DNA of 64,000 nt from a virus (taxonomy: Duplodnaviria; Caudoviricetes). The notes beneath the pieces were generated by a model. That model did no database searches, had not been told where the DNA came from, and saw nothing but the letters and a program-made list of their open reading frames with translations. Of the stretch, positions 14,368-33,612 are shown in pieces (position 1 is the stretch's first letter; each line of letters opens with the position of its first letter). A program made the position numbers and the translations under genes. The DNA is taken from IMG/VR virus record IMGVR_UViG_3300042935_001404. One strand, written 5' to 3'.

Positions 14368-14422
14368 AATTTTCTCCTATTAAGCGAGTTTACTATAAGG
14401 CCCGACCTATTCAGCACCTTAT
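14368..14422 (-). promoter_or_regulatory. Conserved structured leader (bulged-G hairpin + AACTYGCTTA + SD), copy 1
   Basis: ATAAGG-TGC-TGA ATAGG TCG-GG-CCTTAT ... AAACTCGCTTAATAGGAGAAAA. Confidence 0.7.
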
Positions 14423-14436
14423 GTTCTATTGTAACA

Positions 14437-14456
14437 TTATTTATGTTGCAACGCAA
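14437..14456 (-). promoter_or_regulatory. 20-bp operator plus late promoter, copy 1
   Basis: TTGCGTTGCAACATAAATAA on minus strand, identical to 43909-43928. Confidence 0.85.
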
Positions 14457-14502
14457 CATCATTTGGTATTTTTATTAGTGAATGGTCACTAAATAGTATA
14501 AT

Positions 14503-16155
14503 ATGATTATTTTTACACCAACACGAGCAGACAATAGATCAAATCCGTATCTTTTTCATGTCACATCAGAAATTGGAAAACTTCACGGATTAAAATTTTT
14601 ACCCACAGTGACTTATCCAAATCAAGCATGGACGCAGAAGTCGGCCAAACGAGCCCTGGCTGATCCCAATTCTGTGATTGAATTTAAAGACTGGGCACAC
14701 ATTGATTTTTTTAAGCACAGCAAACGAAAAAAAATAATATTTTTAGATCAATTTTTTATACACAACTACTACAAAAGAGATGTTGGCGGCGTTCATGCAT
14801 TAAATCCAGACCAATACTTTCCAAGACCACGTGATCATGCACCCAGCCCGGCAATTGATCGTTATCCCGATCGGATTGACTACAGCTGGGCCGATCTGAT
14901 AATTTGTGTACAAGAAGAAAATCTATCAGGACCTGAATGGCTTGAGTTTTTCAACAATCCTGGAGCCTATTTTCACACCGACTCGGACCGTGTGATATCC
15001 ATAGTGTCTGGCCTAAACTCTGACCTGTCATATCAAAATGTCTTTCCTCCCAACGTGTTACGTGTGCCGCTGAATTTCTGGTGTGCGTGGGTCACAGCCT
15101 GCAATACACCTGTAGAATACAATGCTGACTATGACAGACCTTACAAATTTGAAGCCTTGTTGGGCGGGTCAAAAGAAAATAGACAATTTGTTTTTCACAA
15201 GCTGAAAAAACACAATCTGCTAGAGCACGGTCTGATCAGTATCAGTGCTCAGACATTCAGATCTCCTACTGACCGCCGTTATCACGATGATTTTTATCGC
15301 AGTCCGGATCTAGATAAGTATGACAACAAAGAAATGTTGGTCCTGCGAAAGGATAGTCGTAAAGGCAATTGGATAGCACACACCACTGGCGCCGCAAGAA
15401 TTTATAACTTTCCACTGGGCAACGAAAAATCTACAACGCATGTTGGTCCGTATGCAAGTTTTTTTATACCACATCGCGTTTACCAAGAATCGTGGTTCAG
15501 CATTGTGGCCGAAAGTATTGTTACAAACTGTGACTTTTATACAGAAAAAACTGCCAAAGCCCTGTTGGGTCGTAGAGTCTTTATTACATTTGGGCCACAG
15601 CACAGCCTGAAAGTGCTCAGAGACAATGGGTTTAAAACTTTTGGTGCGTGGATAGACGAAAGCTATGACGACGAGCCCGACGACGAAATTAGATGGGGTC
15701 TGGCTTTTGAACAGGTTGTTCGATTGATTAATCACCCCAGTTTAAAATCATTACATGTTCAAGCACAAGCAGTGCTTGAACATAATTATCAGTTGGTATC
15801 TGATCAACGATCAATGCTAAAACCCATTGACGACTTTATTCAATCGTTTTTAAATGGTACTGCGCCCAGCTGTGTTGGATCGGTGCCAATGAAACAAAAC
15901 TGGACTCCTGCACAACAGCTGGCAGCAACAAAAAAACATCATCCTGTTCAAATTGAACAGGATTCTCCCGGTGCGGCATTTGCACCCTACTCGCCGGAGA
16001 TACTGCAGGGAACTATTATACGTTCAAAAAATACCACTGTGGTGCAACCTATTGTTATTCAACCAACTCGACGGTTCAATGATCGTGCTATACTACAAGC
16101 TCTGGAGCAGGCACGAGCTGAAACAGCAAAAAAACGGCAAGGATTGGGCCGTTAA
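14503..16155 (+). CDS. Putative glycosyltransferase-like protein (GT10-like C-terminal motif)
   Basis: FSIVAES...FYTEKTAKALL...GFKTF..WIDESYD. Confidence 0.5.
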   Translation: MIIFTPTRADNRSNPYLFHVTSEIGKLHGLKFLPTVTYPNQAWTQKSAKRALADPNSVIEFKDWAHIDFFKHSKRKKIIFLDQFFIHNYYKRDVGGVHALNPDQYFPRPRDHAPSPAIDRYPDRIDYSWADLIICVQEENLSGPEWLEFFNNPGAYFHTDSDRVISIVSGLNSDLSYQNVFPPNVLRVPLNFWCAWVTACNTPVEYNADYDRPYKFEALLGGSKENRQFVFHKLKKHNLLEHGLISISAQTFRSPTDRRYHDDFYRSPDLDKYDNKEMLVLRKDSRKGNWIAHTTGAARIYNFPLGNEKSTTHVGPYASFFIPHRVYQESWFSIVAESIVTNCDFYTEKTAKALLGRRVFITFGPQHSLKVLRDNGFKTFGAWIDESYDDEPDDEIRWGLAFEQVVRLINHPSLKSLHVQAQAVLEHNYQLVSDQRSMLKPIDDFIQSFLNGTAPSCVGSVPMKQNWTPAQQLAATKKHHPVQIEQDSPGAAFAPYSPEILQGTIIRSKNTTVVQPIVIQPTRRFNDRAILQALEQARAETAKKRQGLGR

Positions 16156-16179
16156 CTAAATACTTGATAGGAGAACATT

Positions 16180-16389
16180 ATGTTTACAAAAATCAAAGAA
16201 TTCTTGTTTGGCAAACCTTCTGAATTAGAAGCACCATACAAGGTTGAGGCACCAGCACCTGCGGTAGAAACTAAACCTGCTCCTGTAGCAGAAACTAAGC
16301 CTGCTCCAGTTGCCAAGCCCAAGGCAACACCCAAGCCCAAACCGGCAGTCAGGCCAAAGGCACCTGCTAAACCTCGAGCACTAAAATAA
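16180..16389 (+). CDS. Small Pro/Ala/Lys-rich protein
   Basis: AGGAG RBS, CTAAATA late motif, PAPVAETK repeats. Confidence 0.75.
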   Translation: MFTKIKEFLFGKPSELEAPYKVEAPAPAVETKPAPVAETKPAPVAKPKATPKPKPAVRPKAPAKPRALK

Positions 16390-16412
16390 AAAGTCCCGAA
16401 AGGGACTTTTTT
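16389..16412. terminator. Bidirectional terminator
   Basis: AAAAGTCCC GAAA GGGACTTTT. Confidence 0.85.
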
Positions 16413-16566
16413 ATTGATGTGTTTTTTTGGGTAACTTTGGCCTGGCCTTTGGGCCAGTTTCTTTGGCCTTTTCTTGTGCATGTTCGGCAGCTGGACTAGT
16501 TTTATAAGGTGCTGGAACAGGTGCAACTGGTGGATGTCTGTGCGGTATTCGTTTAAACCAACTCAT
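16411..16566 (-). CDS. Small Pro/Lys-rich protein (51 aa, not in ORF track)
   Basis: My translation MSWFKRIPHRHPPVAPVPAPYKTSPAAEHAQEKAKETGPKARPKLPKKTHQ; GTAAATA late motif just upstream. Confidence 0.6.
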   Translation of the reverse strand: MSWFKRIPHRHPPVAPVPAPYKTSPAAEHAQEKAKETGPKARPKLPKKTHQ

Positions 16567-31449: not shown

Positions 31450-31478
31450 ATTATAACAAGATCAAATTATCTTGTCAA
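31450..31478 (-). promoter_or_regulatory. sigma70 promoter overlapping late TAAATA for hsp20
   Basis: TTGACA-17-TATAAT followed directly by AAATA. Confidence 0.75.
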
Positions 31479-33122
31479 TTACATCATGCCCATTCCACCC
31501 ATGCCGCCCATTTGTGGATTTGCCTGAGCATTATCCTTGGCCGGTACTTGTGCAATAGAGCAGTCTGTAGTTAAGATCAATCCAGCAATAGAGCCAGCAT
31601 TGACCAATGCGGTTTTGGTAACTTTGGTTGGATCAATAACACCTTGTTCAACCAAGTCACCATACTCATTGGTAGCGGCATTGTAGCCGTGATTACCAGA
31701 CTGTGATTTAATTTGATTGATCACCACATCTACTGATTCGCCTGCGTTGTTTACAATACAACGAGCAGGTTCTTCTAAAGCACGTAATAGAATGTTCCAA
31801 CCTGCCTGTTGGTCAACGTTGGCAAACTTGTCAGCACGAGCTTCAAGTGCTTGTTTGGCACGAATCAATGCTGTGCCCCCACCTGCAACAATGCCTTCTT
31901 CAACCGCGGCACGAGTTGCGTGTAGCGCATCATCAATGCGATCTTTCTTTTCTTTCATTTCAGTTTCAGTTGCGGCACCTACACGGATAACAGCAACACC
32001 ACCGGCTAGTTTGGCTAGACGTTCTTGTAGTTTTTCACGATCGTAATCACTAGTTGCACCTTCAATCTGCGCACGGATCTGTGCAACACGGTCAGTGATG
32101 GCTTGTTTGTTGCCAGCGCCGTCAATGATGATGGTGTTTTCTTTGTTTACTTCCACACGAGCAGCCATGCCCAAGTGTTCAACTGTGGCCTTGTCTAGTG
32201 TCAGGCCTACTTCTTCAGCAACAACTGTACCACCTGTTAGGATAGCAATGTCTTGAAGCATTTCTTTGCGTCGGTCACCAAAGCCAGGTGCTTTGACTGC
32301 ACATGATTTGATAACACCACGCATGGTGTTGACTACCAGTGTGGCCAATGCTTCACCTTCAACATCTTCTGCCAAGATAAACAATGGCTTGCCACTCTTG
32401 GCAACGCCTTCTAACACCGGCAACAAGTCGCGGATGTTGCCAATCTTTTTGTCAACCAACAACACAAAAGGATTGTCAAGTTCAACTGTTTGTTTTTCTT
32501 GATTGCTAACAAAGAATGGGCTCAGGTAGCCACGGTCAAACTGCATGCCTTCTACCACTGCCAACTCATTGTTCAAGCTCTTGCCATCTTCTACAGTGAT
32601 CACACCTTCTTTGCCCACACGTTCCATTGCTTCTGCAATAAGATTACCAATGTCTGTGTCACTGTTAGCACTGATACTGCCAACCTGTGCAATCTCTTTG
32701 GTGGTGTTGCAGGGCTTGGAAATTTTATCCAACTCTGCTACTGCGGCAGTGACTGCTTGGTCAATGCCACGCTTCAAATCCATTGGATTATGGCCGGCAG
32801 TGACATACTTCATGCCTTCTTTCACAATGCTCTGTGCCAACACTGTGGCAGTGGTTGTACCATCACCTGCTTTGTCTGCAGTCTTACTAGCAACTTCCTT
32901 GAGCATCTGTGCGCCCATGTTGGCCAGTTTATCTTCAAGTTCGATTTCACGTGCAACTGTCACACCGTCTTTGGTGATGTGTGGTGAACCATATGACCGT
33001 TCAATAACAACATTACGACCCTTGGGACCAAGTGTTACCTTGACTGCGTCTGCTAGAACGTTTACGCCTTCTACTAATTTAGCACGACCTGCGCTGCCAA
33101 ATACTACTGTTTTTGCTACCAT
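31479..33122 (-). CDS. groL: Chaperonin GroEL
   Basis: [29 protein letters not shown] tail. Confidence 0.98.
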
Positions 33123-33125
33123 TGT

Positions 33126-33422
33126 TTATTCTCCTTTATTTACAATTGCCATTACATCGGTTTCGTACACGATGTTAAATTCTTCGTTGTCGACTTTGAC
33201 TTTTTGCACAGCAGTCTTGCTGAACAAAACACGATCGCCAACTTTAACTACCATTGGTACCAGTTTGCCATCTTCGGCAATACGGCCAAGGCCAACAGCA
33301 AGCACATCACCCTGGCTGGGTTTTTCTGCTGCCGCATCTGGAATAATTAGACCACTGGCAGTTTTAGTTTCTGCCTCGATCAAACGCACAACAATGCGAT
33401 CACGGATAGGGATTAATTTCAT
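33126..33422 (-). CDS. groS: Co-chaperonin GroES
   Basis: [33 protein letters not shown]. Confidence 0.97.
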
Positions 33423-33455
33423 AGTTTTTCCTTATAATAAATGAATCAATAGAAT

Positions 33456-33484
33456 AGTATAACATAGGCCGATGGCTATGTCAA
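33456..33484 (-). promoter_or_regulatory. sigma70 promoter of groES-groEL
   Basis: TTGACA-17-TATACT; spacer is an imperfect palindrome. Confidence 0.75.
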
Positions 33485-33503
33485 CTGAACTGGGTTAAAA
33501 AGG

Positions 33504-33548
33504 TTATGTGCTGATGCTGTGATCAGGTGGTGACAGGTTTTTGATCAT
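33504..33548 (-). CDS. 14-codon micro-ORF MIKNLSPPDHSIST (not in ORF track)
   Basis: Perfect TATAAATA (33605-33612), leader hairpin and AAAGGAGA RBS directly upstream. Confidence 0.5.
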   Translation of the reverse strand: MIKNLSPPDHSIST

Positions 33549-33612
33549 TTTTTCTCCTTTAATAAGCAAGTTAATGTGATGTAGCCCCGAAGGCACTACA
33601 AAGATATTTATA
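33549..33612 (-). promoter_or_regulatory. Late promoter plus conserved structured leader, copy 3
   Basis: TATAAATA...TGTAG-TGC-C TTCG G-GG-CTACA...TAACTTGCTTATTAAAGGAGAAAA. Confidence 0.75.

Follow-up and report, generated by a model that had tools for sequence, protein, structure and literature searches.

ROSE-like RNA leaders before hsp20 and two further reading frames of a lake-water jumbo phage as probable temperature-responsive Shine-Dalgarno switches

Three short RNA leaders are described on the minus strand of a 64,000-nucleotide stretch of phage DNA (IMG/VR record IMGVR_UViG_3300042935_001404), which was analysed whole and is referred to as the window. The leaders precede the gene of a 92-residue helical protein (copy 1), the small heat-shock protein (sHsp) gene hsp20 (copy 2) and an open reading frame (ORF) of 14 codons upstream of groES (copy 3). 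They very probably belong to the ROSE-like family of RNA elements, and it is likely that they act as temperature-responsive switches masking the Shine-Dalgarno (SD) sequence. The computed grounds are the sequence and structure of the leaders, the covariation of their first hairpin (hairpin I), an end-to-end match to the Rfam model ROSE_3, the leaders of bacterial hsp20 genes and the position of the leaders after promoters. A response to temperature in the host of the phage, and the range over which it would take place, are suggested by analogy.

The original prediction, made from the letters of this DNA, had placed a conserved bulged-G hairpin in three minus-strand leaders, and all three are present where it located them (Table 1). 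They share the same layout of a promoter-like site, hairpin I, a spacer of 4-9 nucleotides, the box AACTYGCTTA(A/T)T, AGGAG, 5-7 bases and ATG, and the predicted transcription starts coincide with the first base of hairpin I. The division of this hairpin into an outer stem, U.G, bulged G, C-G and an inner stem-loop is identical to the minimum-free-energy fold in all three copies. The box contains the ROSE anti-SD motif U(U/C)GCU, whose pairing with the SD defines ROSE-like elements (PMC3669281). In every copy CUUGCUU or CUCGCUU pairs with (A)AGGAG, the order given for CU(U/C)GCUU and AAGGAG being C-G, U-A, U.G, bulged G, C-G, U-A, U-A, and the folds place a stable, G+C-rich hairpin I upstream of this second hairpin (hairpin II). 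Each leader therefore holds two bulged Gs, one per hairpin, of which only that of hairpin I had been seen before. For hsp20, the fold further predicts a closing helix by which the AUG (31380-31378) becomes part of hairpin II. Judged by sequence and fold, the bulged-G hairpin is hairpin I of short two-hairpin ROSE-like leaders. Copy 2 lies in the 5' untranslated region of an sHsp gene; copies 1 and 3 precede other reading frames and depart from the family norm.

When each leader was scanned alone against Rfam, the best match was ROSE_3 (RF02523) over model positions 1-69 of 69, with scores of 31.8 (E 2.6e-5), 22.8 and 18.9 bits. The ROSE_3 consensus of hairpin I, GAUGCCGA..UCGGGUC with a G marked as bulge, matches the core of the hsp20 copy in every base. 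Comparable leaders are also found in bacteria. No true bacterial relative of the phage protein Hsp20 exceeds 47% identity to it, and a matching leader (E < 0.01) stands directly before hsp20 in 39 of 80 bacterial loci, among them those of SAR86, Pelagibacteraceae, uncultured Alphaproteobacteria, Methylophilaceae and others. These bacterial leaders combine a UGC..GG hairpin with CUUGCUU..AAGGAG; on this sequence comparison, short ROSE-like leaders thus have the bulged-G hairpin in common as a family, and it is not specific to this phage.

Within the window the element is confined to the three leaders. The pattern CTYGCT, 2-10 nucleotides, AGGAG occurs three times in 64 kb, each time within one of them. 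A covariance model built from related leaders, the kind of check that the bulged-G element called for, recovered the three with 81.8, 62.2 and 51.8 bits in a scan of the 64 kb, the next match having 12.7 bits (E ~1). When two mismatches are allowed, the 12-mer of the box is no more frequent than by chance, with 23 occurrences for 23.8 expected; the three exact copies alone stand out. A plus-strand candidate at 16132-16188, before a 69-residue ORF that starts with MFT like the 92-residue protein, was rejected owing to its chance-level score (11.6 bits, E 2.1) and the dissimilarity of the two proteins.

Conservation was assessed on 93 leaders, 91 of them distinct, in an alignment that was fitted to the model and leans towards it; 93.6% of the pair cells hold standard pairs, as compared to 79.3% after shuffling and 41-46% with slid partners, and 9 of the 11 pairs of hairpin I have changed on both sides. 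RNAalifold, applied to a plain MAFFT alignment, returned the same hairpin I with seven of nine pairs compensated. The earlier view of a conserved cis-acting mRNA leader on stress-related genes, with an outer stem that covaries around a fixed bulged-G core, is supported. Within the core, all 91 leaders agree in the bulged G, in the C-G pair beside it and in the G of the Y.G pair; the Y position is occupied by U in 79 leaders and by C in 12. In hairpin II, 97% of the pair cells are paired and the sequence is nearly invariant; in relatives L089 and L091 a change of the SD from GGAG to GGAA is matched by C to U in the anti-SD. The GUCA...UGAC closing helix is available in 56 of 58 distinct hsp20 leaders.

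The leader was found on all 80 phage hsp20 loci retrieved, and it is kept on homologues of the 92-residue protein gene down to 45% protein identity. Five near-complete relatives (320-352 kb) contain one or two model matches per genome, always on hsp20 and the 92-residue protein gene, and in two relatives the leader additionally precedes a true dnaK (HSP70, E 3e-255), which adjoins clpX and hsp20. Viral contigs were also searched for a pattern of ROSE box, SD and ATG. Among the 121 matches listed, 80 precede hsp20, three dnaK and two the family of the 92-residue protein; the remainder mostly lack hairpin I and are chance-like. One of the remaining matches, at L387:4140-4404, has the full two-hairpin leader (GUAGAUGCC...GGGUCUAC, then CUUGCUU..AGGAG) before a 65-residue helical protein without a Pfam family, and this small protein may also belong to the gene set of the leader.

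Table 1. Positions of the leaders, their parts and associated features in the window
Feature	Position	Strand	Details
Copy 1 (92-residue protein gene)	hairpin 14422-14395; box 14390-14379; AGGAG 14378-14374; ATG 14367	minus	
Copy 2 (hsp20)	hairpin 31443-31416; box 31406-31395; AAGGAG 31393-31388; ATG 31380	minus	
Copy 3 (short ORF)	hairpin 33600-33580; box 33572-33561; AAGGAG 33559-33554; ATG 33548	minus	
hsp20 hairpin I	31416..31443	minus	7-base-pair outer stem, U31436.G31423, bulged G31435, CCGA/UCGG, loop UGG; from sequence, fold, ROSE_3 alignment, covariation
hsp20 hairpin II core	31388..31404	minus	anti-SD CUUGCUU 31404-31398, bulged G31401, loop AAUA, SD AAGGAG 31393-31388; fits the U(U/C)GCU motif of PMC3669281
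hsp20 closing helix	31376..31409	minus	GUCA 31409-31406 with UGAC 31379-31376; from fold
92-residue protein gene, hairpin I	14395..14422	minus	AUAAGG/CCUUAU outer stem, U.G, bulged G14415, CUGA/UCGG; from fold, covariance model
92-residue protein gene, hairpin II core	14374..14388	minus	anti-SD CUCGCUU 14388-14382, bulged G14385, pairs with AGGAG 14378-14374; from fold
Short-ORF hairpin I	33580..33600	minus	UGUAG/CUACA, U.G, bulged G33594, CC/GG, UUCG loop; from fold, covariance model
Short-ORF hairpin II core	33554..33570	minus	CUUGCUU 33570-33564, bulged G33567, loop AUUA, AAGGAG 33559-33554
92-residue all-helical protein gene	14089..14367	minus	starts MFT; viral family without Pfam assignment
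hsp20 gene	30922..31380	minus	152 residues, IbpA-like; Pfam HSP20, NCBIfam IbpA E 7e-36, alignment with E. coli IbpA/IbpB, 80 phage homologues
14-codon ORF (MIKNLSPPDHSIST)	33504..33548	minus	UGAUCA at start codon can pair with UGAUCA at D-H codons
groES and groEL	31479..33422 (groES 33422-33126, groEL 33122-31479)	minus	Pfam Cpn10, Cpn60; downstream of short-ORF module
hsp20 promoter	31450..31478	minus	TTGACA, 17 nucleotides, TATAAT, TG extension, 12/12; predicted start ~7 nucleotides downstream, the first base of hairpin I
groES own promoter	33456..33484	minus	TTGACA, 17 nucleotides, TATACT, TG, 11/12; between short ORF and groES; kept in relatives
Promoter-like region of 92-residue protein gene	14428..14459	minus	TTGCGT 14456-14451, 17 nucleotides, TACAAT 14433-14428 after TGT; from sequence; predicted start ~14421
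Palindrome ATGTTGCGTTGCAACAT (GTTGC-N-GCAAC)	14459-14443	minus	overlaps -35 of the promoter of the 92-residue protein gene
TATAAATA before copy 3	33605..33612	minus	alternative reading: extended -10 TGgTATAAA, start ~33600
Perfect sigma-70-type promoter	18980-19008	minus	TTGACA-17-TATAAT with TG; before 337-residue ORF 17960-18973; without ROSE-like leader
Proteostasis gene block	30562-34830		clpX, short-ORF module, groES, groEL, hsp20, clpS

A mechanism can be proposed on the model of the two-hairpin ibpA leader of Pseudomonas, for which reporter fusions, toeprinting and probing of the RNA structure established a thermometer function (Krajewski et al. 2013, PMC3669281). In that element, heat melts hairpin II and thus admits ribosomes, and hairpin I is conserved, stable and unresponsive to heat; for hairpin I, the authors suggest a role in proper folding or in protection of the mRNA 5' end (PMC3669281). 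In the phage transcripts, hairpin I at the mRNA 5' end would likewise stay unmelted, and it would probably aid folding and protect the transcript. In the cold, the weak hairpin II, formed by CU(U/C)GCUU and AAGGAG with its own bulged G, would hide the ribosome-binding site, and in the hsp20 leader the closing helix would additionally take in the AUG. On warming, hairpin II would open and the gene would be translated. The predicted energies, with means of -9.6 kcal/mol for hairpin I at 37 C and of -0.4 kcal/mol at 37 C and -2.9 kcal/mol at 10 C for the core of hairpin II, agree with this division of roles between the hairpins and fit a switch tuned to cool water.

Several observations weigh against this assignment and mechanism. 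The ROSE_3 gathering score of 43 bits is reached by none of the three copies, and because all three score below it, the Rfam scan of the whole window at the gathering threshold gave no match. The best ROSE_3 score among the scanned aquatic phage relatives and bacterial leaders is 33 bits, none of them at the gathering level. The Rfam consensus of ROSE_3 is G+C-rich, and from their sequences the leaders are read as a divergent A+T-rich subgroup, to be filed as ROSE-like and not as curated ROSE_3 members. Only two of the six pairs of hairpin II have changed on both sides. The marginal energy calculated for hairpin II leaves doubt that it represses at all, and by nearest-neighbour rules it is weak and might be open at most temperatures. 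Partition-function melting of hsp20 leaders between 15 and 50 C, under energy rules that do not model the non-canonical pairs of ROSE, lowers the pairing probability of the SD only from ~0.57 to ~0.54, and hairpin I stays closed. A phage of lake water may, moreover, rarely meet heat shock. Finally, copy 3 directly controls the 14-codon ORF only, as it does not stand on groES itself; the short ORF is followed by a separate strong promoter and then by an unstructured groES ribosome-binding site.

Originally, a role in enhancing translation or stabilising mRNA had been proposed for the element, on late genes with high expression and with a CspA or Sm-like protein of the phage as candidate binding partner. 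The position of hairpin I at the predicted +1 of each transcript speaks for such a role, as do the stabilisation of E. coli mRNAs by 5'-terminal stem-loops and the similar suggestion made for hairpin I of Pseudomonas (PMC3669281), and to this extent a stabilising function of the 5' hairpin can be retained. An enhancer is contradicted by the conserved box: because it is an anti-SD that pairs with AGGAG, it would mask the ribosome-binding site, and the leader should repress translation instead of enhancing it. The designation as late genes is likewise unsupported, since the promoters of hsp20 and groES are of the sigma-70 type (12/12 and 11/12 consensus positions) and the T4-type late promoter TATAAATA is not enriched, with one occurrence in 64 kb as compared to 2.4 expected. 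A promoter scan of 20 kb revealed only one further site as good as those of hsp20 and groES. Nothing links either CspA or the Sm-like protein to the leader. The enhancer or stabiliser of late genes is, as a whole, very unlikely.

Binding of the leader by a protein is plausible in another form, in which, by analogy, the candidate binder would be the IbpA-like Hsp20 itself (PMC10474464). In E. coli, Cedecea and Vibrio, IbpA binds the thermometer-type 5' untranslated region of its own mRNA and represses translation (Cheng et al. 2023, PMC10474464; Miwa and Taguchi; bioRxiv 10.1101/2020.04.20.050740). The repression is lifted once the chaperone is drawn into aggregates, and it extends to ibpB; R93 is irreplaceable for it, positions 97 and 98 have to be cationic and position 34 aromatic, and IbpB is inactive (PMC10474464; bioRxiv 10.1101/2020.04.20.050740). 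Alignment with IbpA and IbpB of strain K-12 indicates that the phage Hsp20 keeps the equivalents of Y34, R93 and R97 along with the C-terminal IXI motif, and that IbpB is without R93, R97 and K98. Among the 80 phage homologues, the arginine is present in at least 78, the tyrosine in all 80 and the IXI motif in 79. The leader could thus be an operator to which oligomers of the phage Hsp20, or the IbpA of the host, bind and repress translation until aggregates titrate the chaperone; hsp20, the 92-residue protein gene, dnaK and the short ORF would then form one aggregation-sensing regulon, a proposal compatible with thermosensing. It would also account for the sequence-invariant core of hairpin I, which a mere stabilising stem leaves unexplained. 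Against it, the equivalent of K98 is a glutamate, though with an extra arginine at position 96, and the arginine may be conserved for other reasons. An sHsp operator is accordingly regarded as possible, though on balance doubtful.

Copy 3 requires separate consideration, as it may be a relic, that is, a duplicated ROSE leader with a few codons that remained, or was inserted, in the interval from clpX to the groES promoter and has no regulatory role of its own. The nearest groES relatives (L127-L132) lack the module of roughly 150 nucleotides cleanly, a separate strong promoter precedes groES, whose ribosome-binding site is unstructured, and the short ORFs of relatives start like hsp20 (MTK) or dnaK (MSK) and vary in length and sequence. 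On the other hand, several diverged lineages have the module of promoter, hairpin I, hairpin II and an ORF with 8-14 codons ahead of the groES promoter, namely L133-L142, whose GroES is 63-76% identical, and L289; a pattern scan of viral contigs returned five such loci. The window, L126 and L133 differ over the ten initial codons of the ORF (MIKNLSPPDH) by third-position synonymous changes only, in four codons and without replacements, although this sample is small. As the codon changes are all synonymous and the UGAUCA repeat can pair with the start region, the sequences hint that the short ORF is translated and under constraint. In L138-L142, at about 1370-1500, ACUCCC and its variants ~10 nucleotides past the stop of an 8-codon ORF are predicted to pair with the groES SD ~100 nucleotides downstream, the pairing probability of the groES ribosome-binding site being 0.60-0.76; if this pairing is real, translation of the short ORF would unmask groES. 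It is not predicted in the lineage of the window (0.29) and is not claimed for it. A relic without function is somewhat improbable, a relay being the other candidate role.

An extended form of the thermometer reading would unite these elements in a proteostasis regulon of the phage, comprising hsp20, the 92-residue protein, dnaK in relatives and, through the translated leader ORF, groESL. Temperature and titration of Hsp20 would jointly operate the switch, the protein would recognise hairpin I by its invariant Y.G / bulged-G / C-G core, and the short ORF would relay the signal to groES. This full scheme is considered unlikely. The more general proposition, that the phage adjusts the expression of its chaperone genes to temperature or protein stress, is probably correct. 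RNA thermometers are known from cellular genomes, and our literature searches returned no paper on ROSE-type thermometers in phage genomes. If the present reading is true, these phages would set the supply of Hsp20, DnaK and possibly GroES/EL by temperature or by the folding load of infection, beyond the infection clock. The leaders would also provide natural short, A+T-rich variants of the thermometer, probably tuned to cool water, and the reuse of one leader on unrelated genes makes the function of hairpin I and its recognition by IbpA-type proteins testable.

The window was correctly taken for phage DNA by the original prediction; its large relatives and near-identical metagenome copies identify it as part of a jumbo phage from lake water, of a lineage of roughly 320-350 kb that occurs in lake metagenomes. 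IMG/VR holds hundreds of relatives, several of them contigs of 320-352 kb that CheckV rates as 92-100% complete, and at least 16 metagenome runs from lake water contain the stretch nearly letter for letter. Megablast of positions 30000-34000 against GenBank phages gave no match. RNA-library contigs from four metatranscriptomes overlap small portions of the window; being contigs, they reveal no transcript start, carry-over of DNA is possible, and they are uninformative on transcription starts and expression. The short-ORF module has clpX upstream of it, and hsp20 is followed by clpS; other parts of the window code for a ribonucleotide reductase, a protein resembling tail fibres and an ORF resembling virion proteins. 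In relatives L048 and L052, dnaK replaces groES-groEL between clpX and hsp20, and because of this replacement the chaperone slot appears, from gene order, to be exchangeable. Two contigs (L205 and L206) of metagenome-assembled genomes labelled Sediminibacterium and Haliscomenobacter encode an hsp20 that is 81-82% identical to the phage gene. They are probably phage DNA binned into Bacteroidota genomes, which gives a weak hint towards a host in that phylum; the hint fits oddly with the strong SD usage of the phage. A paper on moraphages (PMC12619734), which describes Bacteroidota phages with heat-shock genes and leaves thermometers unmentioned, was not used.

The 92-residue protein is modelled by AlphaFold as three helices, with a predicted local distance difference test (pLDDT) value of 83. 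It received no assignment from Pfam, NCBIfam, PHROGs, a PDB profile search or Foldseek against AFDB clusters. The name phasin, given to it earlier, is unwarranted and amounts to a sub-threshold lead, as the window protein has no match to Phasin_2 (PF09361) even at E 10. Phasin_2 matches were obtained for 5 of 18 homologues, at E 0.0033 or weaker, and a phasin cluster stands at rank 88 (score 0.88) in the atlas list for the protein, which is weakly suggestive of a phasin-like sequence. In the promoter of its gene, relatives L081-L115 retain the GTTGC-N-GCAAC palindrome also when the promoter otherwise differs, and from its sequence ATGTTGCGTTGCAACAT may be an operator for some regulator. The spacer of the groES promoter also contains, in the window and in relatives L127-L142, an inverted repeat by which the natural ACA/TGT complementarity between the -35 hexamer and the TG extension is lengthened, e.g. 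CACATTAT..ATAATGTG in L135, and this repeat could be an operator. The groES promoter of L127 contains AGCACTC, which resembles one half of a CIRCE site; as a matching half at the proper spacing is missing, the resemblance was put down to coincidence.

As compared to the ROSE_3 element of Pseudomonas ibpA, the phage leaders are similar in their length of ~60-70 nucleotides, their two hairpins, the stable, G+C-rich hairpin I with an AUGCC...GGGU bulged-G core, the U(U/C)GCU-SD pairing in hairpin II and, for hsp20, the position directly before an IbpA-type sHsp gene. They differ in being phage-borne and A+T-rich, and their hairpin II is shorter and weaker, without the G-C clamps that flank the core in Pseudomonas. 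The AUG, which is unpaired in Pseudomonas, is predicted to be paired in the phage hsp20 leader, and the promoter is sigma-70-like, not sigma-32. The phage leader is also found on the 92-residue protein gene, dnaK and the short ORF, and it scores under the Rfam threshold. Classical ROSE elements of rhizobia and of ibpA in E. coli and Salmonella (RF00435 and related) control sHsp genes by masking the SD with U(U/C)GCU, with a bulged G opposite that was studied by nuclear magnetic resonance; they have three or four hairpins in ~100 nucleotides, whereas the phage leaders have two in ~60. The likeness to the self-repression of IbpA lies in an IbpA-type sHsp gene with a ROSE-like leader and in the kept equivalents of R93, R97 and Y34 and the IXI motif; unlike the E. 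coli system, the phage has glutamate in place of K98, and the leader is common to genes other than that of the sHsp. Recruitment of the ROSE motif to non-sHsp genes is reported for ABC transporters (PMC11342760, PMC12857270) and in Pseudomonas aeruginosa (PMC4238360). As compared to these non-chaperone cases of bacteria, the phage leader sits on phage-encoded proteostasis genes.

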